Shown: positions 7,336 to 64,000, numbered from the stretch's first letter. The stretch is 64,000 nucleotides of DNA from Phycisphaerales bacterium (GCA_009781185.1 WQYP01000005.1:1-64000); one strand, 5' to 3'. Made by a program: numbers and translations. The notes: generated by a model not told the origin, from the sequence alone.

Positions 7336-7351
7336 GGGAACTCCCGAAAAT

Positions 7352-7550: not shown

Positions 7551-7599
7551 GCCCCCGATTGCGATGCGGCTTTATCTTGTGCACAGGGACTGATAGGAA

Positions 7600-8301: not shown

Positions 8302-8316
8302 ACAAGCGGCTCCCTA

Positions 8317-8345
8317 CGAGCGGCAGGCAAGCCTGCCGGCTAAAT
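8317..8345 (+). repeat. Hairpin motif gagcggcaKgcaagcMtgccggctaaata (copy 2)
   Basis: 'gagcggcaggcaagcctgccggctaaata', lying between convergent genes. Confidence 0.8.
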
Positions 8346-8359
8346 AAGGCTGTGAAAGC

Positions 8360-9199
8360 TTATTTTTCTGGTTCGAATTGGAAGGCGTCGGCGTTTTTTT
8401 TGATTTTGCCGATGCCGGGAAAGGGGAGATGGGCGGCGGCGAATCGCCAGCCTTCGTCGGCGGCGCGGTTCAAAATGGAACGGCGTGATTCGATGGCCTT
8501 GGCGGGGTCACGGTCAAATTTGGCGTTGATTTCCGGATGCGGGAACTGGATGGTGCCGCTGTGGAGGATATCGCCTGCGGCGAAGATTTTGTCGCCTTTG
8601 GAAGTGATCAAGAAGCCGGTGTGGCCGGGGGTGTGGCCGGGGATGGCGATAGCTTTGATTTCCGGGATCACGATGTCGGTTTTTTCGTCGGCGACGATCG
8701 GGTTGGGCTCGCCGTAAACACTGATGGCTTTCTCGTACTGGGCCTTGTTGGAGGACTTCCAGAAATCGAGTTCCTTGGGATTGATCCAGATTTTGGCGTT
8801 AGGGAAGTTTGGTTTGTCGCCGGCGAGGAGGCCGCCGGTGTGGTCGTGGTGGGTGTGCGTGAGGAGGACGGCATCGACGGAGGCGGGATCAATGCCGGCG
8901 GCTTTGAGGTTTTCGAGCATTTTTCGGCCCATGCCAGTATCGATCAGGATGGTGTGGCCGTTGCCTTTGACGACGAAGGCGCTGCAACTGTTGGGTGTTT
9001 TTCCGCTGGGGGCAAGCTTGTGCAAGAGGTCGGCGTCCGCGGCGAAGGTGGTATTGTCGAATTCGCCGCCGGCGTCCTGGACGCAGATGAAGTCGAGGTC
9101 TCCGACCTTGGTCTTTGCAAAACCTTCGGCCCGGACGGACTGACCGGCACACAAGACCAGCAGCAAACAGAACAATAAAATGACGGAGGAATGCATCAT
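8360..9199 (-). CDS. MBL-fold metallo-hydrolase, secreted
   Basis: 'LLTHTHHDHTGG' (HxHxDH motif). Signal peptide 'MMHSSVILLFCLLLVLCAGQSVRA'. Confidence 0.85.
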   Translation of the reverse strand: MMHSSVILLFCLLLVLCAGQSVRAEGFAKTKVGDLDFICVQDAGGEFDNTTFAADADLLHKLAPSGKTPNSCSAFVVKGNGHTILIDTGMGRKMLENLKAAGIDPASVDAVLLTHTHHDHTGGLLAGDKPNFPNAKIWINPKELDFWKSSNKAQYEKAISVYGEPNPIVADEKTDIVIPEIKAIAIPGHTPGHTGFLITSKGDKIFAAGDILHSGTIQFPHPEINAKFDRDPAKAIESRRSILNRAADEGWRFAAAHLPFPGIGKIKKNADAFQFEPEK

Positions 9200-11370: not shown

Positions 11371-11464
11371 GCTGGCGAAGGGGTCGCGACGCAGCAAGCT
11401 ATTGCCGCGATTTCGGCGGGAAGGGATTGGTTGTCTCACTTTGGTTGTCTCACTGCGCAAAGCG

Positions 11465-11497
11465 AAGCCCCGGGATTGCAATCCCGGGGCTTTTTTT
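11465..11497 (+). terminator. Rho-independent terminator
   Basis: Stem gccccgggat/atcccggggc with loop tgca, followed by T7. Confidence 0.85.
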
Positions 11498-11575
11498 ACT
11501 TCCTGCAGGTACCAAGTGACGCGGGCAAGATGCCTGCGGTACGGCGGGCGGGACGCCCGCGGTACGTAGGATGCG

Positions 11576-17074: not shown

Positions 17075-17190
17075 TCTAGAGCATTTTTCACTCGCCCGTA
17101 GCGTTTTGGAGCCCCGCATGGCAATGCGGGGCTTTGGCTCTCGCTTCCTGCGCATGTCATTACGCCACGACCACATGAAAAACGCTCTAG
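17075..17190. mobile_element. 116 bp MITE-like element with ~16 bp terminal inverted repeats (copy 1)
   Basis: Ends 'ctctagagcatttttcac...gtgg..catgaaaaacgctctag', with a central ccccgcatggcaatgcgggg hairpin. A near-identical inverted copy lies at 63301-63420. Confidence 0.8.
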
Positions 17191-21351: not shown

Positions 21352-23103
21352 TCATACGTCAACGATCCTGAGGGTGCCGTCCGTTTCGAGGATGAACATG
21401 GTGGGGCGAAGCCTGGTGGTGGCCTTCACCTTCGCCAAATCCGATTCCAGCTTGGTGACGTCCGCTTCCATCTGGGCTTCGCTAGGCTCGGCGGACTGAC
21501 GGTGGGCCGGGGGACTGGCGACGGGATCGTGCGGTTTGAGAAGTGGGAAGAGCACCACGTCGCGAATCGATTGGCGATTGGTCAGGAGCATGGCGAGTCG
21601 GTCGATGCCGATGCCGAGTCCTCCGGCGGGGGGCATGCCGTGGCGGAGGGCGTTGATGTAGTCGTCGTCCATGCGGGCCATGGATTCTTCGGCGGGGAGG
21701 CCGGCGAGTTGGCGTGTGAAGGTTTCTTGTTGGATGACGGGGTCGTTGAGCTCGGTGTAGGCGTTGGCGAGTTCCATGCCGGCGATGTAAAGTTCGAAGC
21801 GCTCGGCGATGTGCGGAGAGCCTGTCTTCCGTTTGGTCAGCGGACAGAGCGCCGCCGGGTAGTCGTAGAGGAAGATCGGGCGGTCGGATTTCTCGAGTTC
21901 GGGTTCGGCGAGTTGTTCGAAGAGTTCGCCGACGAGGACGTCGTGGTCTTTTTTGGCGGCGTTTTGGAGGCCGCGGTCGGTGGCGATGCGGAGCACGGCG
22001 GCTTTGTCTTGCATGTCGATGCCGACATGCTTATGGAAAAGGTCCGCGTAGCTGACGCGATCGAACGGCGGCGTGTAGTCGATGATGCGATCGCCGTATT
22101 GGAGGTGCAGGGGATGATTATCAGAGCCGCGACCGTAAGGGAGCGACTGACTTTCCTGATGTCTTGCCGCACTGTCGCTCCCTGACGGTCGCGGCTCTGA
22201 TGGGAGTTTGCCCAATGATGCGAGTCGTTCCTTGACCAGGCAAACGAGGAGGGATTCGGTGAGTTCCATCATGCCGGCGAGGTCGGAATAGGCTTGATAG
22301 CACTCGAGCATGGTGAATTCGGGGTTGTGTGTGGTGTCGATGCCTTCGTTGCGGAAGTTGCGGTTGATGTCGAAGACGCGTTCCATGCCGCCGACGAGGA
22401 GGCGCTTGAGGTAAAGCTCCGGGCTGATGCGGAGGAAGAGGTCGATGTCGAGGGCGTTGTGGTGAGTGATGAATGGGCGTGCGGCGGCGCCGCCGGCGAT
22501 GGATTGGAGGAGTGGGGTTTCGACTTCGATATACTGCCGCTGCTTGAGGAAATCGCGGACGGAGTCGATCATCTTCGAGCGGAAGAGGAAGACGTCCATG
22601 GAATCGGGGTTGGCGAAGAGATCGACGTAGCGTTGTCGGTAGCGGAGTTCGGTGTCGGAGAGGCCGTGGAATTTGTCGGGGGGGGGGAGGAGTGCTTTGG
22701 CGAGGAGTCCGAAGCCGTTGGCCCAGATGGTGATTTCTTCGGTTTTGGTGTGTCCGACTTTTCCTTCGAACCAAGCGATGTCGCCGAGCTCGAGGAGTTT
22801 AGCCTGAGGCCAGCGGTCGGGGAAGTTTTGTTTGGCCAAGCCGATCTGGATGCGGGCGGAAGAGTCTTGGATGGTCAGGAAGATGAGTTTGCCGATGTCG
22901 CGGTAGAGGACGATTCGGCCTGCGACTTTGGCGGAGTCTTGGCCGTCGTGAGGGGTGATGGCGGGGCCTTTGTGCAGGGCGCGAGCCTGGGCGGCGGAGA
23001 GGAGGCCGTCGGTACGCTGGCCGTAGGGATCGATGCCCAAGGCGGTCCACTTCTGGAGCTTGGCGAGGCGATCCTTGTATTGAGGATTGTCGGAAGTGGT
23101 CAT
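21352..23103 (-). CDS. lysS: Lysine--tRNA ligase (class II) with an internal repeat-derived insert and a C-terminal extension
   Basis: OB-fold N-terminal domain, class II motifs ('FRNEGID','ELANAYTELNDP','GLGIGIDRL'). ATG at 23103 ('MTTSDNPQYKDRLAKL'). Confidence 0.9.
   Translation of the reverse strand: MTTSDNPQYKDRLAKLQKWTALGIDPYGQRTDGLLSAAQARALHKGPAITPHDGQDSAKVAGRIVLYRDIGKLIFLTIQDSSARIQIGLAKQNFPDRWPQAKLLELGDIAWFEGKVGHTKTEEITIWANGFGLLAKALLPPPDKFHGLSDTELRYRQRYVDLFANPDSMDVFLFRSKMIDSVRDFLKQRQYIEVETPLLQSIAGGAAARPFITHHNALDIDLFLRISPELYLKRLLVGGMERVFDINRNFRNEGIDTTHNPEFTMLECYQAYSDLAGMMELTESLLVCLVKERLASLGKLPSEPRPSGSDSAARHQESQSLPYGRGSDNHPLHLQYGDRIIDYTPPFDRVSYADLFHKHVGIDMQDKAAVLRIATDRGLQNAAKKDHDVLVGELFEQLAEPELEKSDRPIFLYDYPAALCPLTKRKTGSPHIAERFELYIAGMELANAYTELNDPVIQQETFTRQLAGLPAEESMARMDDDYINALRHGMPPAGGLGIGIDRLAMLLTNRQSIRDVVLFPLLKPHDPVASPPAHRQSAEPSEAQMEADVTKLESDLAKVKATTRLRPTMFILETDGTLRIVDV
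22121..22200. repeat. Family A palindromic element (tcagagccgcgaccgtaagggagcgac ... gtcgctccctgacggtcgcggctctga), in frame in lysS
   Basis: 27 nt arms with a 26 nt loop. The arms are identical to those of the copies at 47101 and 48508. Confidence 0.95.
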
Positions 23104-23231
23104 GGCAGTCCTGTTTTGGATGAGGAACAAACGCGGAGAATCATTGTAGGGCATTCGAGCCGCAATCGTAAGATTGCGCTATTGTAACCGCAATCTGGGG
23201 GGGCATGGCACTTTAGGCGGGCTATCTGACT

Positions 23232-27501: not shown

Positions 27502-30500
27502 TTACCTGGTAGTTGACGTCGAGATTTTCGCGTCCGCGGACTGGATGCCGCCCAAAGTTGACGAGATTGCACGGACGATAAAGGTATATTTCGTTGAGGG
27601 TGTCAAGCCTGGGATCGTTACGGGGAGTTCGGTGTAGTTGCCGGACCAGACTTCTGTTTCCGTGTTGCCGTCGAGCCGGAATACCTGGTAGCTGGTGGTT
27701 TCCGGGAACTTGGATGCGGCCCAGGTCAACGTCACCGAATTCGCCGAACTCGTGGCTTTGACGTTCGTGACGGCAGTGTAAGTTTGCGTTTTTGCGTTGA
27801 CGTTCACGGCGGCGGCTTGCATTCCGTTGAAACCTGTCGCCACAACAAAGAACGTGTAAGACATGCCGGGATATAATCCGGGGATCGTGACCGTATTGCC
27901 GGTGACGTACTCATCAACGCCAAGTGCGATGCAGATGATCTCGTACTGGGCGTTGTTGGCGATGGTTTTCCAGGTGAGCGTGACGGTCGAGAGCGTGGAA
28001 CTGCTCTTGATGCCCTTGGCTTTCGTCGGGGCATCGCAGGTGATGTTATTGTTAGACAGAGCCGTGCAGCCGGAGAGATCCAGAGACGTCAACCATTTGT
28101 TGCCGGAACAATTAAGGGTTTGCAGAGCCGTGCAGGCGGAAACGTTTAGGGACTTCAATTGGTTATTGGAGCAATTGAGAGTTTGCAGAGCCGTGCAGGC
28201 GGAAACGTTTAGGGACTTCAATTTATTGTTAGAGCAATTGAGGTTTTGCAGAGCCGTGTAGCCGGAGACGTTCAGGGATGTCAATCTGTTGCCGGAGCAA
28301 GTGAGAGTCTGCAGAGTCGTGCTGGCGGAGACATTCAAAGACTTCAATTTGTTGCCGGAGCAAGTGAGGTTTTGCAGAGCCGTGCAGGCGGAGGCGTTCA
28401 GGGACGATAATTTATTGTTGGAGCAAGTGAGGATTTGCAGAGCCGCGCAGGCGGAAAGGTTCAGGGACGATAATTTGTTGTTGGAGCAATTGAGGTTTTG
28501 CAGAGCCGTGCCGCGGGAGATATTCAGGGACTTCAATTGGTTGCTGTTGCAGGAGAGCAGTAGCAGAGCCGTGCAGGTGGAGGCGTTGAGGGACTTCAAT
28601 CGGTTGCTGGAGCAAGTGAGGATTTGTAGAGCCGTGCATTTGGAGATGTTCAGGGATGTCAATCGGTTGTTGTTGCAAACGAGTTGTTGGAGAGCCGTGC
28701 AGCCGGAGGCATTGAGGGACTTCAATCTGCTGTTGTAGGAGCAACTGAGGATTTGCAGAGCCGTGCGGCCGGAGACGTTCAGGGATTTCAAATAGCTGTT
28801 GTGAGAGCAATTGAGCGCTGTCAATGCCGTGCAATTGGAGACGTTCAGGGATTTCAACAGGTTGTAGCTGCAATCGAGAGATTCCAGAGCTGTGCAGCGG
28901 GAGACGTTCAGGGACTTCAAGGGGTTGTTGTAGCAAGCGAGCGATTGCAGAGCCGTGCAGCGGGAGACGTTCAGGGACTTTAATTGGTCGTTGGAGCAAT
29001 CGAGTTCTTGGAGGGCCGTGCATCCGGAGACGTTCAAGGAGGTGAATTGGCTGTTGTTGCCGCAATCGAGTTCCTGGAGAGCCGTGCAGCCGGAGACGTT
29101 CAGGGATGTCAATTGGTTGTTGTTGTCGCAATTGAGAGATATCAGAGCCGTGCAGCCGGCCAAATTAAGTGAACCACTGAGAGGCCTGGTAAACGGGCCG
29201 CTTGAACTGCTGTTAGTTGCATCGATGCTTTTGATTTTCAGTTCGTCGTTGACTACTGTCCATATGACCATATCCTCTGTGAGTCCGTTTTTGGCGATGG
29301 CGGTGGTGTATTTCGCCCAGTCGTAGGCGTTGTAGGGTGCTACCCCTGTCGTCGCACTGACGGTGTCCGAATACGGCGAGTCGCTGTAGTCGCCCGTTCC
29401 GATCGCCATGACGCAGACGTCATAGGTCGTTCCCACCTTCAAGTCGTCAAAATCAAAAGTGAGCGTTGTGCCGTCCGTCACCGTTTTCGTTTTTGTGCCC
29501 ACTTGAATCACGTAGCCGGAAGCGCCGGGCACGGCATCCCAGCTGACGGTCAGTGTGACGGCGTCCTTGGCGGTTGCCGTAACGCCTGTTGGAGCGGCGA
29601 GCGTCGATGCCAGGATCGTGACCTCTGTTGTTTGCAGCGTCAATTCCGGAAACGTCGCATTGGTCATCGTGCAGTAGATGACGTCATCCGTATGGAGACC
29701 GTCGAATACGAATTGGCCGTTGGTTTCCGTGTAATTGTCTGGGGAAACCGTCGTCCCGTCGGCGTAATACCATGTGTACGTAGTCGGCACTCCGCCGATC
29801 ATGGACTCTGTGGAAAGGTCTAACATCGCATCGCGAGCAAGCGATGATACGATGGAAATATCGCTTTGCGGGCTGTAAGTGTTGCTGGTCAGAGGCAGCG
29901 TTGAAAAAGTCAATTGGTTGTTGGAGCAGTCGAGAGTTTGCAGAGCTGTGAAGCCGGAGAGGTTCAGGGACGTTAATTGGTTGGTGGAGCAGTTGAGCGA
30001 TTGCAGGGCCGTGCAGTCGGAGAGGTCTAGGGATGTCAATTGGTTGGTGGAGCAATCGAGAGTTTGCAGGGCCGTGCAGTCGGAGAGGTTCAGGGACGCC
30101 AAGCTGTTGAAGCTGCAATCGAGAGAAGAGAGCTCCGTGCAACCGGACAAGTCGAGGGTACCGTTGAGACCGGCGTCGCTGGCGATGACCTGGGTGAGTC
30201 GCATTTCGCTATTGATTTGCGTCCATGTGACCATGTCCGCAGTGAGTCCGTTGTTGTCAACGGCGGTGGAGTATTTCGCCCAGTCATCGGCGTTATAGCC
30301 ATCAGGGGCAGGGTCAGCGGCGACGTCGGCGGCAGTGGCGGCGGGAACGACTGCAGCCTGATCCTGAGGAGCGATGAGCGCAACGGAGGTTGCGTGATTG
30401 TCGGGAACCGCAAGTTTTGGCAATAACGGACTGGCCGAGAGCATTGTCCGGTTATCGAGAGATTCCAAAATATGCCGGGAATTGTGGGTGGGTCTGGTTT

Positions 30501-46685: not shown

Positions 46686-47100
46686 CAGGTCGGGTAATGT
46701 GGCGGAACAGGCTTGACAAAGCCCCCCGCGATTGATCGCGGAGGGAGCGGAACGCGGAGAAAATATTCCAACTTCGTTTCATGGCTGAGTTTATGTCAAT
46801 CTTGCCAGAAAGTGTCCGTGCGTAACCGCGCACACGGCAATACGCTGTATGTTCGATATACCACAAGTTTCCAAAAAAACAAGGACTTTTTTATGTTTTT
46901 TGGAAGGGGAGGCGTGACATGGTTTGTACACCCAAGTCGCGTTCGTACGGGTCGCGACGCCGCAAGCGGTTGCGGGGATCTTCCACACAAGTCATGTCGG
47001 TTTTTGCTCCGCCAGCCAAAGCTCCGCATTGCCATGCGGGGCTCTGTCACCCCGCAAAGCGGGGTCTACGTGCTCTGTCTCAACCCTCCGCAAGCGATGA

Positions 47101-47181
47101 TCAGAGCCGCGACCGTAAGGGAGCGACAGGCGGTATTTTCGCATGGTCACACGGGTCGCTCCCTGACGGTCGCGGCTCTGA
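47101..47181. repeat. Family A palindromic element (intergenic)
   Basis: Same 81 bp sequence as 48508-48588, including the loop 'aggcggtattttcgcatggtcacacgg', by eye. Confidence 0.95.
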
Positions 47182-47232
47182 TAGAGGATAGAGACAGAGC
47201 AGGGTCTACGTGCATTTCATGTCACGTGCCTT

Positions 47233-48507: not shown

Positions 48508-48588
48508 TCAGAGCCGCGACCGTAAGGGAGCGACAGGCGGTATTTTCGCATGGTCACACGGGTCGCTCCCTGACGGTCGCGGCTCTGA
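48508..48588. repeat. Family A palindromic element (intergenic)
   Basis: Direct duplicate of 47101-47181. The adjoining 48589-48635 segment ('ttatccggggcaatcgtctgattggccataaaaaatggccacaccc') recurs inverted at 63881-63922. Confidence 0.95.
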
Positions 48589-48677
48589 TTATCCGGGGCA
48601 ATCGTCTGATTGGCCATAAAAAATGGCCACACCCGTTTATTATAGCATTTTGTGGGGGTATGCTGTAGGCTGCGGGG

Positions 48678-49707: not shown

Positions 49708-50457
49708 ATGCGGGCGGAATATCTGGATCGATACAGCCGATTGAGCAGTCCGGTGCATCGGCTTTGGACGGGTGTGAAATTGTTGGCGGCGGTGGCGGTG
49801 GTGGTGGTGGTGGTGTCGATGCCGCGGAATTTTTGGGGTGGGTGGGCGGGATTGGCGGCGGTGGCGGGGTTTCTGGTAGTGGTGGCGGCGATGAGCGGGA
49901 TTCCGTGGGGGTTTTTGCTGCGGCGGATGCTGTGGCTGGAGCCGCTAGCGATTGGCGTGGCGTTATTGAGCTTGTTGCAGGTGGGTGGGTGGCAGGTGTT
50001 TTTGTGGCTGATGGCGCGGAGCAGTTTGTGTCTGCTGACGATGCTGCTTTTGTCGAACACGGCGCCGTATTCGGAGCTTTTGCGGGTGATGCGTCGGGTG
50101 AAGGTGCCGACGATGCTGGTGACGACATTGGCGTTGATGTATCGGTATTTGTTTGTGATGATGGATGAGGCGGGGCGGATAAAGCGGGCGCGGATGAGTC
50201 GGACGTTTTCGGAGAGGGGGGGGGGGAAATCACGCCGTTGGCGGACGGCGGCGACGGTGGTGAGCCAGTTGTTCATCCGAGTGAGCGAACGATCGGAGCG
50301 GATATTCGCGGCAATGTGTGCGCGGGGATGGGGAGACGGTCTGAGCCGCGACCGTAAGGGAGCGACCCGTTCTAGCGCTCTGTTATCGCACGGTCGCTCC
50401 CTTACGGTCGCGGCTCAGATCGTCAAAGACAATAGCTCTGGGAACGAGGGAAGATAA
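49708..50457 (+). CDS. cbiQ: ECF transporter transmembrane (T) component CbiQ
   Basis: 'MRAEYLDRYSRLSSPVHRL' from the ATG at 49708, 2 nt after the cbiM stop. '..AMCARGW' lies near the native C-terminus. The stop TAA overlaps the cbiO ATG. Confidence 0.8.
   Translation: MRAEYLDRYSRLSSPVHRLWTGVKLLAAVAVVVVVVSMPRNFWGGWAGLAAVAGFLVVVAAMSGIPWGFLLRRMLWLEPLAIGVALLSLLQVGGWQVFLWLMARSSLCLLTMLLLSNTAPYSELLRVMRRVKVPTMLVTTLALMYRYLFVMMDEAGRIKRARMSRTFSERGGGKSRRWRTAATVVSQLFIRVSERSERIFAAMCARGWGDGLSRDRKGATRSSALLSHGRSLTVAAQIVKDNSSGNEGR
50340..50419. repeat. Family A palindromic element forming the 3' end of cbiQ
   Basis: 'tctgagccgcgaccgtaagggagcgac...gtcgctcccttacggtcgcggctcaga'. The stem position is A-T paired here. 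Confidence 0.9.
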
Positions 50458-52278: not shown

Positions 52279-52338
52279 TCAGAGCCGCAATCGTAAGATT
52301 GCGGAGCGATAACCGCAATCTCACGATTGCGGCTCTGA
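52279..52338. repeat. Family A variant with 'ccgcaatcgtaagattgcgg' arms
   Basis: 'tcagagccgcaatcgtaagattgcgg agcgataa ccgcaatctcacgattgcggctctga'. Related units at 7361-7400, 23157-23200, 60975-61000 and 63250-63283. Confidence 0.85.
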
Positions 52339-52366
52339 TGGTTTGCACGTCTATGGTGACCGGATT

Positions 52367-53461
52367 TTAGTTGCCATCGGAGTGGCCCCAGCGGAAATGG
52401 CGGGCTTCGAGCTGGGTGATGAGTTGATCGGTGGTGGGAGAGGTAGCGAGGAGGTCGGCGAGGATTTTTTCGGCGGCTTGGTAGTCGGCGAGACCGGTGT
52501 CGTCGCCGGTGTGGTAGATAAGCGTGTCGGTTTGGGCGAGGCGGGCGGCGAGGAGTTGGAGGATGGTCATGAGTTGGCGGTCGCCGCCGTAGACGCCGCA
52601 GCCCCAAAAGCCGGTGTGGATGGTGATTTTTGGGAGAGCATCAGAGCCGCGACCGTCAGGGAGCGACCCCTGAGTTACCGCTTCACGGTCGCTCCCTGAC
52701 GATTGCGGCTCTGATGATTGTATTTTTGCGGCGGTGAAGGCGGTGGTGGCAGTAGTGAGGATGTAGCGAATTTGGTTGGCGGTGTAGAAGCCTTTGCCGT
52801 TAGCGGGGGCCTCGATGGCGATGATGTTGGAGAAGGTGGGTGGGTCGATGGTGGTGATCGCGCAGCGGACGACGTCGGCGGAGGCTTGGGCAAAGGCATT
52901 GCCGTAAAGGCCGCGGAGCTTGATGCGACGCTGGACGTTTTGAATGAGGATCGGTGTGGGCTCGCCGGACTCGACGGTAAGGGTGGAAAGGCGATCGTGC
53001 AGGAGGGCTTCGCGGAGGTGGGCGAGGATGGGATGCTCGGCGACCTGCAGTTCATCCTGGGCGAGCAGAGGGGAGGCATAAAACAAAAAGAGATCGCTGT
53101 GGGCAAAGTTGAGGTGCCACTCGATGATGTTTTTATTTTTATTTTTATTTTTCGGTGTGTCATAGGTGAAGAAATCGGGACGGGCTTCGGCGGCAGGAAT
53201 TTTGGCGGGGAGCGTTTGCGGGAGAGGCTGGGCGGGCCAGCGGGAATAGGTGAGAGTGCCGGCGTGGGCAGAGTTTTTCGGGCAGGCGAGGGCGTAGGTG
53301 AGTTGCTTGTTGGAATCTTGGAAAGTGAGGGGGAAGTCTTTGGCGAGTGTGGCGGCGTCGTAGGATTTGGTGGCGAGCGGTTTCATGACCGGCTCCGTAG
53401 TCGCAGCGGTAAACATCGCTGCGAAAAGAACAATCGCTAGAAGTTTGCAAATAACAGTCAT
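52367..53461 (-). CDS. Poly(ADP-ribose) glycohydrolase (PARG)-like protein with an N-terminal signal peptide
   Basis: 'HTGFWGCGVYGGDRQLMTILQLLAA' versus eukaryotic PARG 'TGNWGCGAFGGD..LK.L.Q.LAA' (recalled from memory). 'LNFAHSD...LLAQDELQVAEHP' versus 'DFANK.LGGG...VQEEIRF..NPE'. Signal peptide 'MTVICKLLAIVLFAAMFTAA'. Confidence 0.6.
   Translation of the reverse strand: MTVICKLLAIVLFAAMFTAATTEPVMKPLATKSYDAATLAKDFPLTFQDSNKQLTYALACPKNSAHAGTLTYSRWPAQPLPQTLPAKIPAAEARPDFFTYDTPKNKNKNKNIIEWHLNFAHSDLFLFYASPLLAQDELQVAEHPILAHLREALLHDRLSTLTVESGEPTPILIQNVQRRIKLRGLYGNAFAQASADVVRCAITTIDPPTFSNIIAIEAPANGKGFYTANQIRYILTTATTAFTAAKIQSSEPQSSGSDREAVTQGSLPDGRGSDALPKITIHTGFWGCGVYGGDRQLMTILQLLAARLAQTDTLIYHTGDDTGLADYQAAEKILADLLATSPTTDQLITQLEARHFRWGHSDGN
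52641..52714. repeat. Family A palindromic element, in frame in the PARG-like gene
   Basis: 'tcagagccgcgaccgtcagggagcgac...gtcgctccctgacgattgcggctctga'. The stem position is C-G paired here. Confidence 0.9.
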
Positions 53462-54319
53462 TTACGCGATCCGCGGCTTGATCCACTGGATGAATTTGGG
53501 GAAAGCGATTTCGGGGTCGGGCAGTTCGGGGTGCCAATGTTTTTCGTATTCGAAGAGCAGCCAGCCCCCCCCCGCGCTGTAGCCGTTACGTTTGAGGATC
53601 GCGACGCATTCGGCGAGCGGGAGCTGGCCTGTGCCGCAGTCGACATAGCGCCAGCCGGTGCCGACGCCGAATTCGCCTTTGCTGGCCTTGGGGTCGGCGG
53701 GGACGTAGACGGCATCCTTGAGGTGGACGTAGCGGATACGTGGGGCGAGGGCGGTGTAAGTTTGCAGCGGCGTTTCTTTCCTGGTCATGGCGGCGGCGGT
53801 GTCCCAGACGGCAGCGAAGTTGTCGTCAGGGACGGCGTCGAGCATCAGCTTGGTGTCGGCGCCCTGAATCCAGTGGTCGTGAGTTTCGAAATTCCAGGAG
53901 AGCCCCCCCCCCTTGGCGCCGGGAAGAGCGAAGATTTCCTGCATCATGTTAGCGCCGATTTTGACGAGTTCGGAGCGTGGGGTGGTATCGAGGTTGCCGT
54001 AGCCCATGACGCGGATGTTTTTGGCGCCGATGGCCTGGCAGACGGCGATGGTGCGTTTGGCTTCGTCGAGGTTACGGTCGTGGCGATCGGGGTTGCAGAT
54101 GCAGATGGAGGAGGAGATGCCGAAGATTTCGACGCCGGCGTCTTTGATTTTGCGGACGGTTTGGGGGAGGTCCGCATTGAAGGCGGGGATGGCGGCGATG
54201 TCGAGCTGGCCGAGGAGGCCGCGGAAGTCGATGCCGTCGAAGCCGAATTTTTTGGTGTTGGTCAGCAGCGTGTCGAGGTTCCACGCGGGACAGCCGAGGG
54301 TGGTGAGGGAGAGTTTCAT
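53462..54319 (-). CDS. Sugar phosphate isomerase/epimerase (xylose-isomerase-like TIM barrel)
   Basis: 'MKLSLTTLGCPAWNLDTLLTNTKKFGFDGIDFRGL'. Its stop codon abuts the start of the PARG-like gene. Confidence 0.75.
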   Translation of the reverse strand: MKLSLTTLGCPAWNLDTLLTNTKKFGFDGIDFRGLLGQLDIAAIPAFNADLPQTVRKIKDAGVEIFGISSSICICNPDRHDRNLDEAKRTIAVCQAIGAKNIRVMGYGNLDTTPRSELVKIGANMMQEIFALPGAKGGGLSWNFETHDHWIQGADTKLMLDAVPDDNFAAVWDTAAAMTRKETPLQTYTALAPRIRYVHLKDAVYVPADPKASKGEFGVGTGWRYVDCGTGQLPLAECVAILKRNGYSAGGGWLLFEYEKHWHPELPDPEIAFPKFIQWIKPRIA

Positions 54320-54802: not shown

Positions 54803-55651
54803 CTAGAAAGCGACTCCCTCGGCAAGCAGTGTTTTGGCCCATTTGACGAAGGCGGGGAAGGCGATTTCCGGCTCCGGAAGCGTCGGGTGCCAGCGTTTTT
54901 CGTGTTCGAAAAGCAGCCAACCGCTGAAGCCTTTTTGGCTCAGGAGTTTGACGGATTGGGCGAGTGGGAGTTGGCCTTCGCCTGGGAGGGTGTAGCGCCA
55001 GCCGCCTTCCATGGCGTTGGGGTGATTGGGTTGGAGAGAGGCGTCTTTGACGTGTGTGTAGCGGACGCGTGGGCCGATGGCGGCGTAGGTTTGCTCGGGG
55101 GATTCGCCGCCGACGCGGTAGGTGTGGCCGAGGTCCCACAGGGCACCAAAAGCGGGATTGGCGACGACGTCGAGCAGGAGTTTGCAATCGACGGCCTTGA
55201 TCCAGTGGTCGTGCGTTTCGAAATTCCAGGAAAGCCTCCCCCCCTCGGCGCCGGGAAGGGCGAGAATTTCGTTGACCATGGCGGCGCCGATTTTGGCGAG
55301 TTCGGGTTTTGGCATTTTGTCAGCCGGGCCGCCGCCGAAGATGCGGATGTTTTTGGCGTTCAGAGCCAAAGCGACGGGGATCGTGCGCTTCGCTTCGTCG
55401 AGGTTGTCGTTGTGCTTGGCGGGGTCGCAGACTTTGATGGAGGAGGAGATGCCGGAGACTTCGAGGCCGGCGTTTTGGATTTGTTGTGCGGTTTTGGTGA
55501 GGTTGGTGGTGAAGGCGGGGAGTTTGGTGATGTCGAGGTCCATTCCCAGTCCGCGGAAGTCGATGCCGTGGTAGCCGTAGGCTTTGGCGTTGGTCAGGAG
55601 GGTCTCGAGGGACCAGCCGGGGCAGCCGAGGGTCATGACGGAGAGCTTCAT
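54803..55651 (-). CDS. Sugar phosphate isomerase/epimerase (TIM barrel), paralog of 53462-54319
   Basis: 'MKLSVMTLGCPGWSLETLLTNAKAYGYHGIDFRGL'. Colinear with the paralog throughout. Confidence 0.75.
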   Translation of the reverse strand: MKLSVMTLGCPGWSLETLLTNAKAYGYHGIDFRGLGMDLDITKLPAFTTNLTKTAQQIQNAGLEVSGISSSIKVCDPAKHNDNLDEAKRTIPVALALNAKNIRIFGGGPADKMPKPELAKIGAAMVNEILALPGAEGGRLSWNFETHDHWIKAVDCKLLLDVVANPAFGALWDLGHTYRVGGESPEQTYAAIGPRVRYTHVKDASLQPNHPNAMEGGWRYTLPGEGQLPLAQSVKLLSQKGFSGWLLFEHEKRWHPTLPEPEIAFPAFVKWAKTLLAEGVAF

Positions 55652-57846: not shown

Positions 57847-58135
57847 CGTGAACAGGAACGCCGGGGGTGACAAGCGGTTTCGGTGGCCTTTGGCGAAATC
57901 AACGCAAAGCCCCGCATTACCATGCGGGGCTCCTCCTGACGCCTGTGCTACATGTGCCACAAAAGATGGCCACACCCAGAACGCCAAATGTAATTGCCCG
58001 TGGTTTGACACTCTTCTGTCATTACCTATACTGGTTCCCTCGACATTTTCGCCGTGAAATTCGGCTCTTTGATACCCCGCCCGCAGGTTCTTAATCAAAA
58101 TATCCTGACGCGGCCTATTTCGGAGGAATTGTATC

Positions 58136-60889
58136 GTGGCTAAGAAAAAAGTTTCCAAGTCGTCGGCTAAATCGGTCAAGAAAGCTCCCGCCGGTAAAGC
58201 GAAGGACGCAGTTGCCAAGCGCGTCTTTTTCTTTGGCAACGGCAAGGCGGAAGGGATGAAGTCCGCCAGCACGGAATCGCAGCGGAGAATGATGCTCGGC
58301 GGCAAGGGTGCTGGTCTTGCGGATATGACTTCCGCGGGGCTGCCGGTGCCGCCGGGATTCACGATCTCCATCCCGTGCTGCGAAGAGTATTACCAGCTCG
58401 GGCGGAAGCTTTCGGACAAGACCAAGAAGGAAGTGCTGGAGAATCTGACGAAGGTCGAAGCGGCGATGGGCAAGAAGCTGGGCGATCCTAACGATCCGCT
58501 GCTTGTGTCTGTGCGGTCCGGTGCTGCTCGCTCGATGCCGGGCATGATGGAGACCATCCTGAACCTCGGGCTGAACGATCAGTCCGTTGAAGGCCTTGCC
58601 AGGAAGACCGGCAATGAGCGGTTTGCTTACGATTCTTATCGCCGTTTTATTCAGATGTACTCCACCACGGCGATGGGGCTTTCCAAAGAGCCGATGGAAG
58701 AGTTGCTTCATGAGATGAAGCACAAGCTGGGGGTGAAGACGGACCCTGAAATCCCGGCGGCCAATCTCAAGGACCTCTGCGAACATTTCAAGAAATTCTA
58801 CAAGGACAACAAGGGCTCCGATTTCCCGCAGGACCCGGTTGAGCAGCTTTGGGGCGCTATTATGGCGGTCTTTGGCAGTTGGGAAGCGGACAAGGCCGTG
58901 ACGTATCGCCGGGTTGAAAAAATCACGGAGCTCAAAGGCACCGGCGTGAACGTTCAGACCATGGTCTACGGCAACAAGGGCGATAACTCCGGTACGGGCG
59001 TCTGCTTCACCCGCGATCCCAACACCGGCGAAAATATCTTCTACGGCGATTACCTCATTAACGCCCAGGGCGAAGATGTCGTCGCCGGCATCCGTACGCC
59101 GCTGAAGCTCTCCACCATGGAAAAGCAGCTTCCCCGCGCTTACAAGGAACTCTGCCAGGTTCGCAAGCAGCTCGAAAAGCACTACAAGGATATGCAGGAC
59201 TTGGAGTTTACCGTTGAGGAAGAGAAGCTGTTCATGCTTCAGTGCCGCAGCGGCAAGCGTTCTCCGTCGGCGACTTTTAAGATTGCCGTCGATTTGGTCA
59301 ATGAGAGGCTTTTGACCAAAGAAGAAGCGATCATGCGGATCACGCCGGAAGATATTGAACGCTTGTTCTACCCGGTGATCGATCCGAAGCTGGACCGCAA
59401 GAGTTTGCCGAAGCTGGCCAATGGTATTGATGCGGTGCCTGGTGCTGCGGCTGGTCGCGTTTCCTTTAGTGCCGCCGACGCGGAAGCTCGCGCTGCCAAG
59501 GGCGAAAAGGTCATTCTCGTTCGCAAGGAAACTTCGCCTGAAGATGTCGGCGGTATGCATGCCGCACAAGGCATTCTTACTGCTACCGGCGGAAAGACTT
59601 CGCACGCGGCCGTCGTCGCTCGCGGTTGGGGTAAGTGCTGCATCGTCGGATGCGAAGCGCTTCGCATTAACTACGAGACTGGCGAAATGGTCATCGACGG
59701 TAAAACCGTCAAGGCAGGCGATTTCATTACGCTTGATGGTTCCACCGGCGACGTGTTCCTTGGCGAACTTTCCCTCAAGGCTCCTGAACAGCCGCTCGCT
59801 TACAATATTATCATGAAGTGGTGCGATGCGATTCGTACGCTCAAGGTCCGTACTAATGCTGACACGCCGTATGACGCTGAGAACGCCATCAAGATGGGGG
59901 CCGAAGGCATCGGCCTGACACGTACCGAGCACATGTTCTTCGACACCGAAGAACGCCGGTTGGCTATTCAGGAAATGATCGTCGCGGATTCGGTGAATGC
60001 CCGGCGTGCGGCGCTGGCCAAGCTCCTGCCTTTCCAACGCGAAGATTTCATCGGCATCTTTACCGCGATGGATGGCAAGCCTGTGACCATCCGTCTCATC
60101 GATCCGCCGCTCCATGAGTTCACGCCGAAGGATGACGCTGGCGTGAGCAAACTTTCGCAGCTCACCGGTATTTCGCCGGAGGACATCCGTCACCGCTGCC
60201 ATCAGCTCCATGAAGCCAATCCGATGCTCGGGCATCGCGGCTGCCGACTCTGCATCACCTACCCGGAAATTCTCGATATGCAGGTCACGGCGATCATCGA
60301 AGCGGCGATCGCCTGTGCCCAAAAGGGTGTTAAGGTCCTGCCAGAAATCATGATTCCGCTGACGATGGACAAGAAGGAACTGAAGATTCAAGTGGACCAG
60401 GCGCGTGCACTGGCTGACGGTCTGATCAAGAAGGCTGGCAGCAGGGTGAAATACATGCTGGGCACGATGATCGAAGTTCCGCGAGCGGCACTTCTGGCCG
60501 ACCAGGTCGCCGAAGTTGCCGAGTTCTTCTCTTTTGGCACCAACGACCTGACGCAGATGACGATGGGCCTTTCCCGCGACGACGCCGGCCGCTTCCTGCC
60601 CACCTACGTCGCTTCCGAAAAGGACGGTGGCAAGGCGATCTTCAAAGCGGATCCGTTCCAATCGCTCGACCAGGACGGCGTAGGCGCGTTGGTCAAGATC
60701 GGCATCGAAAAAGGCCGCAAGACCCGCAAAGACCTCAAGATCGGCATCTGCGGCGAACACGGCGGCGAAGCCAACTCCGTGAAGTTCTGCCATAAAGCCG
60801 GCATGAACTACGTGAGCTGCTCGCCGTATCGCGTTCCGATCGCTCGCCTGGCCGCCGCACAGGCCGTGATCGCCGACAAGAAGAAATAA
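58136..60889 (+). CDS. ppdK: Pyruvate, phosphate dikinase (Lys-rich N-terminal extension)
   Basis: 'GGKGAGLADM', phospho-His loop 'TATGGKTSHAAVVARG', 'GICGEHGG'. GTG start. Confidence 0.95.
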   Translation: MAKKKVSKSSAKSVKKAPAGKAKDAVAKRVFFFGNGKAEGMKSASTESQRRMMLGGKGAGLADMTSAGLPVPPGFTISIPCCEEYYQLGRKLSDKTKKEVLENLTKVEAAMGKKLGDPNDPLLVSVRSGAARSMPGMMETILNLGLNDQSVEGLARKTGNERFAYDSYRRFIQMYSTTAMGLSKEPMEELLHEMKHKLGVKTDPEIPAANLKDLCEHFKKFYKDNKGSDFPQDPVEQLWGAIMAVFGSWEADKAVTYRRVEKITELKGTGVNVQTMVYGNKGDNSGTGVCFTRDPNTGENIFYGDYLINAQGEDVVAGIRTPLKLSTMEKQLPRAYKELCQVRKQLEKHYKDMQDLEFTVEEEKLFMLQCRSGKRSPSATFKIAVDLVNERLLTKEEAIMRITPEDIERLFYPVIDPKLDRKSLPKLANGIDAVPGAAAGRVSFSAADAEARAAKGEKVILVRKETSPEDVGGMHAAQGILTATGGKTSHAAVVARGWGKCCIVGCEALRINYETGEMVIDGKTVKAGDFITLDGSTGDVFLGELSLKAPEQPLAYNIIMKWCDAIRTLKVRTNADTPYDAENAIKMGAEGIGLTRTEHMFFDTEERRLAIQEMIVADSVNARRAALAKLLPFQREDFIGIFTAMDGKPVTIRLIDPPLHEFTPKDDAGVSKLSQLTGISPEDIRHRCHQLHEANPMLGHRGCRLCITYPEILDMQVTAIIEAAIACAQKGVKVLPEIMIPLTMDKKELKIQVDQARALADGLIKKAGSRVKYMLGTMIEVPRAALLADQVAEVAEFFSFGTNDLTQMTMGLSRDDAGRFLPTYVASEKDGGKAIFKADPFQSLDQDGVGALVKIGIEKGRKTRKDLKIGICGEHGGEANSVKFCHKAGMNYVSCSPYRVPIARLAAAQAVIADKKK

Positions 60890-60917
60890 CTCTCTCCATT
60901 AACTAACCAACCCCTCA

Positions 60918-60948
60918 AGCCTAGGGACTGCAGTCCCTAGGCTTTTTT
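60918..60948 (+). terminator. Rho-independent terminator of ppdK
   Basis: Stem agcctagggac/gtccctaggct with loop tgca, then T6. Confidence 0.85.
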
Positions 60949-61121
60949 CATGGCAAAACAGAACACCAAAACAGAGCTGCAATCGTAAGATTGCAGTGGG
61001 GGGGAAAATGGGGGAGGCACGCCTGAAAGGCGTCAACATACGTAGCCGGGAGCAGCGTCCCCGGTTAGCATACCCCCACAGACGCCACGCCCTGAAAGGG
61101 CAATACATAGGGAATGACTTT

Positions 61122-61643
61122 ATGACAGCATCTGACTGGATAGCTCTGGCTACTTTAATCGCCGGTGTAATAGGCGGAGTATTTGTTTGGTGGCAGTGGC
61201 GTATTGGCAACAAGACGAAACGAGCTGAGTTCATCAGTCAGATAATTGAAAAATTACGATTTGATCCCGAGATACCCAAAATAATGTACCTGCTCGATTA
61301 TGATCAGCAATGGTATGATGCAAACTTTCACGGCGGTAGCAAAATCGAAGAAAAGATAGATAAGTTATTCTCTTATCTTACATACATTTGCTATATGCGG
61401 AAGCATAAAAATATAAGCAATCGCGAGTTTTGTATATTGGATTATGAGATAAGAAGAGTTTGCCAGAACAAGCAAGGACAGGCGTATCTTTGGAATTTAT
61501 ACCACTTTTCGAGAAAAATGGAGACGCAGTGTTCTTTTCATGATTTGATAGAATATTTAAGAAACAAAGTTTTGAGTGCAGAACAGAAAGAACGATTCGA
61601 TAGCAAAGACAACGGGGATTATCCTAAGTTTCTAAATTTTTAG
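61122..61643 (+). CDS. AT-rich hypothetical protein with a single N-terminal TM helix
   Basis: 'MTASDWIALATLIAGVIGGVFVWWQW', then a ~130 aa soluble domain. Visibly much lower GC than the neighbouring genes. No family confidently recognised. Confidence 0.6.
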   Translation: MTASDWIALATLIAGVIGGVFVWWQWRIGNKTKRAEFISQIIEKLRFDPEIPKIMYLLDYDQQWYDANFHGGSKIEEKIDKLFSYLTYICYMRKHKNISNREFCILDYEIRRVCQNKQGQAYLWNLYHFSRKMETQCSFHDLIEYLRNKVLSAEQKERFDSKDNGDYPKFLNF

Positions 61644-61841
61644 CAAAATGAACGGACGGGTGGCCGGGGTCTGATTTTTGGGTGTCACAGATTTGGACCT
61701 GTGCTTGGGTTTTAGCGTGAGGGTGCCGGTTCGAATTGTCCGAGTCAGTAGTCACCGCCGGGGAGGTGGACGGTGATGGCGAGGGTGCCGCCGAGCTTGC
61801 AGGCAAGCAGGCAGAGGTATTCGCCAGATGCGTTGTGAGCA

Positions 61842-62279
61842 TCACACGCAAGCCAGCTCAGCTTTGGCGTCACTTTGTTCCGCCGCTTCGATCAACCGGT
61901 CGTAAACCTGTTTGCGGTAGGTCAGCGATGGCGCTTGTTCAGAGCCGGGCGACGCCAACAGCTTCGCAAGAAAGAACAAGTACCCTAGTTTCATCGGCCC
62001 ATCCTGAATCTCGATCTGGAACGCAGGCATTTTCTCCGACAATTTCCGGCAGAGACTTTTGATGCCTTTAATGAGCGCCCCGGTGACTTCGTTGGTTTCC
62101 TGGCTGTAGTAGACGGTGATCAGATCGTCAATACGCTCACCGTAGAACATATCGGGTTTCGCAATGAATTCGATGCAATCGCCGTCGGGATCGTAGTAGG
62201 CGTGCGGCTCAAATGGCGGAGCGGATTCCGCCAGTTTCATCACATACTCTTCGAATTGTTTATTGCTCATGGCCGTCAT
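61842..62279 (-). CDS. Hypothetical protein (second gene of an overlapping pair)
   Basis: '[39 protein letters not shown]'. Its ATG (62277-62279) overlaps the upstream gene's TGA (62276-62278) as ATGA. Confidence 0.55.
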   Translation of the reverse strand: MTAMSNKQFEEYVMKLAESAPPFEPHAYYDPDGDCIEFIAKPDMFYGERIDDLITVYYSQETNEVTGALIKGIKSLCRKLSEKMPAFQIEIQDGPMKLGYLFFLAKLLASPGSEQAPSLTYRKQVYDRLIEAAEQSDAKAELACV

Positions 62280-62707
62280 AACAGTCTCCTCTTGAATCGT
62301 ACCCCGTGATTTATCGGCAAATCCGGCGAGTCGGGTTCGGCCTTGTCCCACCTCCAATTGTAGGCAATGCCATCCGCGTTCACAAACACCAGATACACCT
62401 GTCCGCGATAGGGCGGGGCTTCGGTTCCATCGGGCCGGTGACTGTGCGGTGGAATGCCGCAGTAGCATCTCCATCCGATGCCACGACGATCCTCGTCTTC
62501 TTCCCGAGTGATGCCTTCGAAAATGGCTCGCGGTTTTTGAAGGATGTAAGCCACGAGGACCGCGGCATCTCTGGCATGCCCCGCGCTGCGTCTGATAACA
62601 ACTTGCAGCCTGTCATAGGATATCTGCACCTTCAGCGGTTTGCCGTCGCCTGGGTTGATGGCGTCAATCATCAGAAATTGCCGCCGTGTTGATGATTGCT
62701 CGGACAT
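62276..62707 (-). CDS. Hypothetical protein (first gene of an overlapping pair)
   Basis: 143 aa ORF, '[28 protein letters not shown]'. No family recognised. Confidence 0.55.
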
Positions 62708-62741
62708 GGGGGCATCCTATTCGCACGGATGGCGGGAATCA

Positions 62742-63158
62742 ACCAGATCGCCGAAGTCGCCGAGTTCTTCTCCTTGGGGGCAACCCCTTGAGGGCAACCT
62801 CTTCGGCACCAACGACCTCACCCAGATGACCATGGGCCTCTCCCGCGACGACGCCGGCCGCTTCCTCCCCGCCTACGTCGCCAGCGAAAAAGACGGCGGC
62901 AAAGCCATCTTCAAAGCCGACCCCTTCCAATCCCTCGACCAGGATGGTGTAGGCGCCTTGGTCAAGATCGGCATCGAAAAAGGCCGCCAAACCCGCAAAG
63001 ACCTCAAGATCGGCATCTGCGGCGAACACGGCGGCGAAGCCAACTCCGTGAAGTTCTGCCATAAGGCCGGCATGAACTACGTGAGCTGCTCGCCGTATCG
63101 CGTTCCGATCGCTCGCCTCGCGGCGGCCCAGGCTGTGATTGCGGAGAAGAAGAAGTAA
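62742..63158 (+). pseudogene. Duplicated 3' fragment of ppdK (last ~125 codons), disrupted by a ~28 bp insertion
   Basis: '[33 protein letters not shown]...[18 protein letters not shown]' parallels ppdK residues. The insert 'cttgggggcaaccccttgagggcaacct' (62773-62800) introduces a stop. Confidence 0.9.
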
Positions 63159-63187
63159 GCTTCTCCTCCAAATCAAACCTCCATCGA

Positions 63188-63216
63188 GCCCAGAGACTGT
63201 AGTCCTTGGGCTTTTT
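63188..63216 (+). terminator. Duplicated (diverged) ppdK terminator
   Basis: 'gcccagagactgtagtccttgggctttttt'. Confidence 0.7.
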
Positions 63217-63300
63217 TCATGATGTGCTCACACGGAGACGCAGAACCATCCGAGCCGCAATCATAAGATTGCGGTTCGCAGGGGTGTGGTTGTTGTTTCA

Positions 63301-63420
63301 CTATTAGAGCATTTTTCATGTGGTCGTGGCGTAATGACATGCGCAGGAAGCGAGAGCCAAAGCCCCGCATTGCCATGCGGGGCTCCAAAACGCTACGGGC
63401 GAGTGAAAAATGTTCTAATG
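63301..63420. mobile_element. 116 bp MITE-like element (copy 2, inverted relative to 17075-17190)
   Basis: 'ctattagagcatttttcatgtggtcgtggcgtaatgacatgcgcaggaagcgagagccaaagccccgcattgccatgcggggct...gtgaaaaatgttctaatg'. Confidence 0.8.
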
Positions 63421-63545: not shown

Positions 63546-63818
63546 TTGCGCTCCGTGCAGAGTCATTCCCCAGATACTCTCAAACTCGCTTACGGCGATA
63601 CCCTGCGTAAGTTCAGGTTGCCCACTGGACTCAGCCAGATGAAGTTGGCCGACAAGGTTGGTGTTCATTTCACCTATCTGAGCGATGTCGAACGTGGCAA
63701 TCGAAATATTGCCTTGGTCAATATCGTGCGTGTTGCCCGAGCGTTAGATGTGCCACTGGACAAGTTCTTTGCCGAAGTTGAAGCGCAGCTCGCTCGTTAT
63801 TCGCATCCAACAAAATGA
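63546..63818 (+). CDS. XRE-family (Cro/CI-type) HTH transcriptional regulator
   Basis: 'LRKFRLPTGLSQMKLADKVGVHFTYLSDVERGNRNIALVNIVRVARAL'. TTG start. Confidence 0.75.
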   Translation: MRSVQSHSPDTLKLAYGDTLRKFRLPTGLSQMKLADKVGVHFTYLSDVERGNRNIALVNIVRVARALDVPLDKFFAEVEAQLARYSHPTK

Positions 63819-63922
63819 AGAATTGAGGCGTACCTCGAAAAACGCCCACGCTTAGGAGAGGGAGGAGGGGGGGGTTGGGCGTGGCCATTTTTTATGGCCA
63901 ATCAGACGATTGCCCCGGAAAA

Positions 63923-64000
63923 TCAGAGCCGCGACCGTCAGGGAGCGACAGGCGTTATTTCCGCATTGTCGCACGGATCGCTCCCTGACGGTCGCGGCTC
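63923..64000. repeat. Family A palindromic element (cut by the window end)
   Basis: 'tcagagccgcgaccgtcagggagcgac...atcgctccctgacggtcgcggctc'. Together with 63881-63922 it forms an inverted copy of 48508-48635. Confidence 0.85.

Follow-up and report, generated by a model that had tools for sequence, protein, structure and literature searches.

A small recombinase-free insert between two diverged copies of the ppdK 3' end in a Phycisphaerales bacterium

Elements at gene ends and the ppdK locus

As a rule, integrative elements insert at the 3' ends of housekeeping genes and leave the genes themselves undisrupted (PMC5704250). Cis-mobilizable elements (CIMEs) are decayed integrative and conjugative elements (ICEs) or integrative and mobilizable elements (IMEs) retaining both attachment sites (attL and attR) and lacking the genes for integration and transfer; examples lie at the 3' ends of housekeeping genes in streptococci (PMC5704250). 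Here we analyze a stretch of 64,000 nucleotides (nt) from a Phycisphaerales bacterium (GCA_009781185.1, WQYP01000005.1:1-64000), which we call the window. In the window, the 3' end of ppdK, which encodes pyruvate, phosphate dikinase, is present twice, and a 1.7 kb interval with three open reading frames (ORFs) lies between the two copies.

The insert in the window is like a CIME in that it lies at the 3' end of a conserved gene, is flanked by direct repeats of the gene's end, leaves the target intact, and has no recombinase. Also as with CIMEs, a related locus (L173, described below) contains a tandem array. Unlike the short and identical attachment (att) sites of CIMEs, the repeats in the window are about 0.5 kb of diverged homology around a 161-nt core. 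The host phylum is Planctomycetota, no helper element is known, and descent of this islet from an ICE or IME is putative.

Another precedent is the icd/e14/icdC locus of Escherichia coli K-12, where e14 (and likewise phage 21) replaces the end of a central-metabolism gene by synonymous variants, according to the part of PMC13626634 that cites Hill et al. 1989. In the window as well, the putative incoming 3' end differs mainly at synonymous sites, the native C-terminal part is left as a displaced pseudogene on the far side, and excision would yield a chimeric yet functional gene. Unlike e14, a 15-kb prophage that brings an integrase, the insert in the window is 1.7 kb and has no integrase or phage functions. 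Also, e14 is not known to have homology to its target other than 3' of the crossover, while in the window there is homology on both sides.

In the tycheposons of Prochlorococcus, successive integrations at a single site push older elements outward, with partial copies of the target, and degenerate remnants, between the cargo (bioRxiv 10.1101/2020.12.28.424599). The array in L173 resembles these successive integrations and also the accretion of CIMEs (PMC5704250). Tycheposons target tRNA genes and have tyrosine recombinases and replication modules; none of these is seen at the islet in the window.

The arrangement of the locus is like that of a Campbell-type integration: the 5' part of the target is joined to an incoming 3' arm, followed by cargo, and then by an incoming 5' arm that is joined to the native 3' part. 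Campbell-type insertion-duplication is familiar from suicide vectors and from lambda-dgal heterogenotes, that is, as a laboratory or specialised-transduction route. To our knowledge, natural and recurrent insertion of this type has not been described as a class for small islets.

The kind of event, in which integrating DNA replaces the 3' end of a housekeeping gene, is known; the target, the host phylum, and the cargo are new. If our interpretation is correct, then ppdK (and the rsmD-like gene in L173) join the housekeeping 3' ends that serve as landing pads, in a phylum whose mobile elements are barely described. The locus would also be a natural record of a foreign module being joined behind an essential metabolic gene without damage, and the synonymous mosaic would map the crossover.

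Two diverged copies of the ppdK 3' end

The nearest relatives of PpdK from the window are 87% identical (amino acid level) and are Planctomycetota/Phycisphaerae-like. An earlier note on this DNA, made from the sequence alone, had claimed that the 3' end of ppdK and its terminator recur downstream, with a near-identical core of about 161 nt, with differences that are nearly all synonymous, and with a 28-bp insert that breaks the downstream copy. Our alignment bears this out, and places the end of the downstream copy (copy B) at 63275. Copy B and the upstream copy (copy A) are direct repeats that adjoin the 1.7 kb cassette, with a spacing of 2241 or 2269 nt (Table 1).

Across 389 aligned coding positions, 36 differ between the copies, and these are far from evenly spread. 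Just 3 of the 161 nt in the core (60689-60849) differ, at 60719, 60721, and 60796, as compared to 24 of 188 nt in the left flank (60501-60688) and 9 of 40 nt in the right flank (60850-60889). (These counts correct the earlier note slightly: it had about 20 differences in about 165 nt on the left, and it gave the last stretch, with its 9 differences, as 45 nt.) The contrast between the core and the flanks is significant (P = 5 · 10−6, Fisher exact test), and in 20,000 permutations, no stretch of 161 nt ever had as few as 3 mismatches. The repeats are a mosaic with a sharp core, as the note had proposed, so uniform divergence is ruled out. The longest exact match between the copies is 74 nt, beginning at 60722; outside the core, the longest is 26 nt. 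The core is not intrinsically slow to evolve: for about 25 related ppdK genes, identity to the window is around 80% both inside the core and outside it, in the flanks.

Among the differing codons, 30 are synonymous and 4 are non-synonymous. By the Nei-Gojobori method, the synonymous divergence (dS) is 0.72 to the left of the core and 0.06 within it, and the right flank is saturated, while the non-synonymous divergence (dN) is 0.008-0.035; between the copies, dN/dS is around 0.05. Since the differences are almost purely synonymous, both copies must have been working ppdK ends, in separate lineages, for almost all of the time over which they diverged. Judging from these patterns, neither copy is a decayed local duplicate: they are functional alleles that come from two lineages, and one of them was imported.

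Which parts of each copy were imported? To the left of the core, copy B has the C-ending variant at 16 sites and copy A at 2 sites; to the right of the core, copy A has the C-ending variant at 6 sites and copy B at 2 sites. A similar switch is seen by comparison to L090, which is the closest relative of the C-terminal part. To the left of the core, 8 informative sites favor copy A and 16 favor copy B, and to the right, 7 favor copy A and 1 favors copy B (P = 0.013, Fisher exact test). The same switch is seen with L118 and L083 (P = 0.03-0.04; up to 0.037), and the tests with these three relatives are not mutually independent. A haplotype that combines the left part of copy B, the core, and the right part of copy A is uniformly about 89% identical to L090, as compared to about 77% for the remainder of the resident gene. 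Also, the 3' untranslated region (UTR) of copy A is similar to that of L083. In this interpretation, copy A would be native on the left and incoming on the right, and copy B would be incoming on the left and native on the right; the statistical support is moderate, with few sites. We infer that the last 40 or so codons of ppdK and the sequence downstream are of incoming origin.

It is likely that the topology is of the Campbell type, with one reciprocal crossover, in the core, between the resident ppdK and a circle of about 2.27 kb. The earlier note had suggested either a cassette that was delivered by recombination and brought its own ppdK 3' end, or a homology-driven insertion from a relative. 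The synonymous divergence, the core, the switch in polarity, and the likeness to L090 all support this suggestion.

The two hairpins of copy A fold at -23.5 and -14 kcal/mol (z of -4.7 and -5.5). Copy B retains its own stop codon, terminator, and palindrome, and the terminators of both copies fold well. The 28-bp insert in copy B is a tandem pair of 14-nt units, with a single mismatch between them (13 of 14 positions agree); it does not occur elsewhere within the window. Gene callers report copy B as a 150-amino-acid PEP-utilizers_C protein (62640-63158, with an ATG at 62706). This is a pseudogene fragment that is read across the junction of ORF3 and copy B.

Table 1. Features of the ppdK locus (positions in the window; REP, repetitive extragenic palindrome)
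Feature	Position	Strand	Basis
ppdK (pyruvate, phosphate dikinase), intact, 917 amino acids	58136..60889	+	ORF; Pfam PPDK_N/PEP-utilizers/PEP-utilizers_C
Repeat copy A: ppdK 3' coding end (60501-60889), 3' UTR, terminator, REP-like hairpin	60501..60997	+	alignment with copy B
Near-identical core, copy A (putative crossover or conversion tract)	60689..60849	+	3 mismatches to copy B core
Copy A intrinsic terminator	60917-60944 + T run	+	
Copy A REP-like hairpin (small palindrome)	60976-60996		
Structured ORF1 leader with two CCTGAAAGG hairpins	60998..61121	+	
ORF1, 173 amino acids, N-terminal membrane helix	61122..61643	+	
ORF2, 145 amino acids, second gene of two-gene operon (antitoxin-like position)	61842..62279	-	
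ORF3, 143 amino acids, first gene of operon; stop overlaps ORF2 start (ATGA)	62276..62707	-	
Putative ORF3-ORF2 promoter: TTGATT (62742-62737), 17 nt, TAGGAT (62719-62714)	62714..62742	-	read from sequence
Repeat copy B: 5'-truncated ppdK 3' fragment, terminator, REP-like hairpin	62742..63275	+	alignment with copy A
Copy B coding fragment, frame broken by 28-bp insert	62742-63158	+	Pfam PEP-utilizers_C match
28-bp insert within copy B: tandem pair of 14-nt units (CCTTGGGGGCAACC / CCTTGAGGGCAACC)	62774..62801	+	
Near-identical core, copy B	62979..63139	+	alignment
Copy B terminator	~63186-63213 + T run	+	
Copy B REP-like hairpin	63251-63277		

Related loci and how the insertion might have arisen

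We compared the window to about 144 related ppdK loci with at least 1.5 kb of downstream sequence. Fragments of ppdK were visible only within 10 kb, so this screen is biased towards small, decayed islets. None of these loci has the duplication without a cassette, which argues against an ancient tandem duplication, a possibility that the earlier note had raised. The gene neighborhoods of the relatives of ppdK are not conserved. No genome or contig from the same species without the islet is in the databases. Every protein from the locus is in a cluster of its own.

Two of the related loci also have a fragment of the ppdK 3' end downstream of ppdK, and in both, the cargo is different from that of the window. 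In L084, which is the closest relative (87% amino acid identity; 10554-11929), a fragment of 117-133 nt lies 1.1 kb downstream, behind two small ORFs. This fragment has its own terminator and has 15 synonymous versus 1 non-synonymous differences. Its longest identical run is just 17 nt (AAGTTCTGCCACAAAGT), and this motif lies inside the core of the window's repeats. The other locus is from a deltaproteobacterium (L056; 12504-15202) and has an older and partly degenerate fragment 2.4 kb downstream, behind a 563-amino-acid membrane protein. The fragments are about 417 nt in the window, 130 nt in L084, and 170 nt in L056.

A different housekeeping gene is involved in L173 (ENA ERZ26871208 contig_121343; 7055-8588), where several small cassettes are arrayed downstream of an rsmD-like gene (8500-9099, - strand). 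The 3' end of this gene (8509-8588) recurs at 7433-7512 (80 nt, 98.75% identity) and at 7055-7145 (85% identity). Homologues of ORF3 and ORF2 occupy one of the intervals between the repeats, and the neighboring interval has a hicB-like gene. After every copy there is a separate in-frame stop. The only recombinase called within 8 kb is an IS110 transposase.

As we reconstruct the insertion, a circle of about 2.27 kb would have carried a 3' segment of ppdK from a related lineage (the left part of copy B, the core, and the right part of copy A), with its terminator and REP hairpin, along with ORF1 and the ORF3-ORF2 operon as cargo. If this circle and the resident ppdK recombined by a single reciprocal crossover, somewhere in the 161-nt core, then ppdK would be left intact with the incoming end. 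The native end and its terminator would be displaced 2.2 kb downstream, after the incoming left arm. The full-length ppdK does end in the sequence that we read as incoming, and the displaced native end (copy B) is truncated and frame-broken.

The crossover may have been made by a site-specific recombinase, from an integrative element whose attachment site (attB) is the 3' end of ppdK. The recombinase would later have been deleted, or it might have been supplied in trans, which would leave a small integrase-less islet between two att-bearing repeats. Gene conversion that was seeded at the shared att segment could afterwards have extended the identity over 161 nt. An addiction-like two-gene module would be an expected survivor of such decay. 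Taken as a whole, including the site-specific enzyme, this account (a decayed, integrase-less, CIME-like islet at the ppdK 3' end) is our tentative preference, and it could well be wrong.

We favor a site-specific route because of the 17-nt core in L084 and the sharply bounded 80-nt repeat in L173. An identity of 17 nt is too short for RecA-dependent recombination and is typical of an att core, so L084 in particular argues for a site-specific enzyme.

Several observations weigh against a site-specific enzyme. Copy B has 237 nt of homology to ppdK on the left side of the core, which a classical attP would not need, and which L084 and L173 do not have. Also, the near-identical tract of 161 nt is beyond what site-specific recombination itself gives, so a second step (conversion) is required. 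The cassette, and the remaining 0.8 kb before the contig ends, have no gene for an integrase, an excisionase, or transfer, and none of the four islets (in the window, L084, L056, and L173) has a recombinase, although our screen, with its 10 kb reach, favors small and decayed islets. Three recombinase exemplars did not match anywhere in the window, although this is a weak test. Finally, we did not find any phage or viral contig in IMG/VR or INPHARED with a truncated ppdK 3' end beside an integrase.

More broadly, the earlier note saw no integrase or transposase, and the databases agree: within the cassette, there is no match to a recombinase, a relaxase, or a transfer protein in Pfam, NCBIfam, PADLOC, or PHROGs. 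An integrase-bearing element at ppdK was not found in the 144 or so loci (within the 10 kb reach), in IMG/VR, or in INPHARED. The matches in IMG/VR are to full-length host ppdK only (L086, near a Mu-like prophage, and L087), and the matches in INPHARED are unannotated contigs with host ppdK. In L086 (13-9929), ppdK is followed directly by the Mu-like prophage, and there is no duplicated fragment of ppdK in the stretch viewed. In one of the INPHARED contigs (L181; MT835627.1; 30-6811), the ppdK of a gut bacterium is directly followed by an element with a primase-like gene and, 4 kb from ppdK, a 579-amino-acid serine recombinase; again, the stretch viewed has no duplicated fragment of ppdK.

We also considered other classes of elements. 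We rejected a transposon or insertion sequence, as there is no transposase, no inverted repeats bound the insert, and the duplication is about 0.5 kb and diverged. As for signs of an integron, there was no match in Rfam, and the imperfect palindromes at the ends of the cassette are just the genome's REP hairpins (no attC model was run). The 9-mer GGTTCGAAT at about 61727 is no more than would be expected by chance. No Rfam family was found, and neither a whole tRNA nor a fragment of one was called. A 36-nt repeat near ppdK in L160 was set aside as part of an ordinary tRNA-gene island.

The leading alternative to a site-specific enzyme is that homology alone drove the insertion, by a RecA-dependent single crossover with a circle that contained a truncated segment of ppdK. 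The circle could have arisen by the looping out of a related ppdK-linked islet or by aberrant excision, as for lambda-dgal. The 161-nt core would then be a tract of heteroduplex or mismatch repair. This would account for the two-sided homology (237 nt left of the core and about 150 nt right of it), for a near-identical tract that is set within sequence that is 13-24% diverged, for a polarity switch that is centered on that tract, and for the lack of a recombinase gene in the cassette. Also, the left end of the fragment is at an arbitrary place within the frame of ppdK, where it abuts the -35 box of the cargo, and the fragments in the window, L084, and L056 are of unequal length. On the other hand, outside of the core, the longest identical run is just 26 nt, and when partners differ this much, RecA-dependent recombination has very low efficiency. 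The 17-nt run in L084 would be hard to explain by homology, as the divergence there is older than the insertion (15 synonymous changes to 1 non-synonymous), and the sharply bounded repeat in L173 is like an att identity block. Natural cases are also rare as compared to integrase-mediated islands. Overall, we consider a purely homology-driven insertion to be somewhat unlikely.

A more general form of this idea is that Planctomycetota have cargo islets without a recombinase of their own. Each islet would carry a slice of a housekeeping gene's 3' end (of ppdK, or of the rsmD-like gene in L173) as a homology arm, and host homologous recombination would loop it out and re-insert it, replacing the gene's end each time and moving the former end downstream. 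We view this as unlikely too. If it were true, it would be a natural insertion-duplication, like that of a suicide vector, and a route by which addiction or defence modules spread among related species. The recurrence of recombinase-less islets, together with the unusual two-sided homology in the window, raises the question of how they move: they might be dead remnants, or they might still be mobile via homology or with help in trans. It is much less likely that the conserved ORF3-ORF2 pair itself supplies the targeting or recombination activity. We rejected these genes as a mobility module, at least as our main explanation: five of seven loci with the module do not have flanking repeats, so the pair seems to be cargo and not the agent of mobility.

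Alternatively, in a variant of the site-specific account, the islet might be part of a larger accretion. Copy B would then be an internal attachment site (attI) in front of a second and possibly intact element, which would run from an XRE-type helix-turn-helix (HTH) gene (63546-63818) past the end of the contig, and whose integrase would serve both elements. The contig ends at 64003, inside a repeated palindrome and only 0.8 kb past copy B; the GC content past copy B is lower (48-52%), and the HTH gene is repressor-like. Tandem arrays at a single att site are well documented (PMC5704250; bioRxiv 10.1101/2020.12.28.424599), and L173 is such an array. However, the genome's own REP and MITE-like repeats (MITE, miniature inverted-repeat transposable element) are found past copy B, which suggests that the DNA there is native, and no third fragment of ppdK is on record for this lineage. 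We consider accretion to be improbable.

Two other explanations are far less plausible still. As the contig is metagenomic, and the source assemblies are probably from the same reads (the contig's are SRR10512953), an assembly artefact could have fused the ppdK regions of two co-occurring strains. But copy B is truncated at its 5' end and is fused to unrelated sequence, the promoter of ORF3, at a junction where no k-mer is shared; a Logan contig (L082), made by another assembler, is 100% identical and crosses this junction; and the longest identical run of 74 nt is shorter than the k of 141 that is implied by the contig name (k141_484950) of L081, a second assembly with the same structure and 99.97% identity. 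Also, L084 has a similar structure, and its record name (np1212) suggests a long-read assembly. Finally, although the repeats are direct and near one another, a local tandem duplication that diverged in place is hardly credible, since a non-functional copy would gain mostly non-synonymous changes (30 of the 34 differing codons are synonymous), the divergence is not uniform, the copies match different relatives on opposite sides of the core, and no related locus is duplicated without a cassette.

Cargo genes and repeat families

The earlier note described the cassette as having three unrelated ORFs, one of them AT-rich. We do find three ORFs, and ORF1 is AT-rich (35-39% GC, versus about 57% in the surroundings), but ORF3 and ORF2 form a conserved pair and are not unrelated. 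The low GC content of ORF1 suggests that it has a separate and recent origin. It has 635 homologous cluster representatives, all of them unannotated. Its only matches are weak, to DUF4381 and to holin-like proteins, and these are confined to the N-terminal hydrophobic stretch. The leader of ORF1 (60995-61125) folds at -52.7 kcal/mol (z of -3.4) and did not match any family in Rfam. Within it are a pair of CACGCC(C)TGAAAGG hairpins that resemble each other and are separated by about 70 nt.

ORF3 has over 500 homologues of about 143 amino acids, at 55-68% identity, with an invariant GWRCYCG motif. ORF2 has 202 homologues, mainly from Planctomycetota, and the family's proteins are about 140 amino acids long. 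In L088, L173, L175, and L177, too, the genes lie next to each other and overlap. Neither protein matched a family in Pfam, NCBIfam, PADLOC, or PHROGs, and AlphaFold2 models (pLDDT of 73 for ORF3 and 76 for ORF2) had no significant neighbor in the PDB (the best E-values from Foldseek were 0.4 and 0.04, respectively). A search of PLSDB found no homologue of ORF3. The putative promoter lies immediately before the start codon of ORF3, and its boxes recur with the same spacing in a paralogous module (L171). In the window, the -35 box is right at the edge of the ppdK fragment.

By its arrangement alone, the ORF3-ORF2 pair looks like a toxin-antitoxin system. As in type II toxin-antitoxin operons, the genes are small and overlap at ATGA, and they are present in multiple copies that are scattered among housekeeping genes, with a hicB-like neighbor in L173. 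Unlike those operons, they have no similarity in sequence or fold to known toxin or antitoxin families. We flag the pair as a large, conserved, and unannotated family that could be typical cargo of islands, and as a candidate addiction or defence module.

Paralogous ORF3-ORF2 modules are present in the same samples as the window, at L169:3397-3994 (79% nucleotide identity) and L171:1277-2164 (74%). The three modules are probably in one metagenome-assembled genome. L169 and L171 are short contigs that are crowded with small unannotated ORFs, and in L169, just the 3' part of ORF3 is left.

The window also contains several families of palindromic repeats. A REP-like palindrome, AGCCCCGCATT(A/G)CCATGCGGGGCT, occurs at 57908-57931, just upstream of ppdK, and at 63361-63384, just downstream of copy B, as well as at 7478, 9370, 13610, 17108, and 47014. 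A second family, with GAGCCGCGACCGTCAGGGAGCGA arms, is found at 63877-64000, 47100-47182, 48508-48634, 22120-22201, 50340-50420, and 52640-52716. Both assemblies (the window's contig and L081) break inside the copy at the end of the window, and a related copy (77% identity) lies at 4656-4745 of L173. A third family of hairpins (CYGCAATC-RTAA-GATTGCRG) includes the hairpins that follow the two ppdK terminators (60976-60996 and 63251-63277), which differ by one compensatory pair (T-A to C-G); other copies are at 52280-52343 and 23157-23177. There is also a 113-nt element at 63305-63417 and, inverted, at 17077-17189. The two copies are 98% identical, with 30-nt terminal inverted repeats and a central REP palindrome, and the element looks like a MITE.

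Elsewhere in the window, a long run of diverged tandem repeats (28057-30158; a period of about 63 nt and 72-80% identity) is presumably a gene for a repeat-rich protein. Lastly, 53498-54319 and 54854-55651 are paralogues with about 70% identity (AP_endonuc_2 or xylose-isomerase-like TIM barrels, according to the gene calls for L081), and a 94-amino-acid ORF lies between them.

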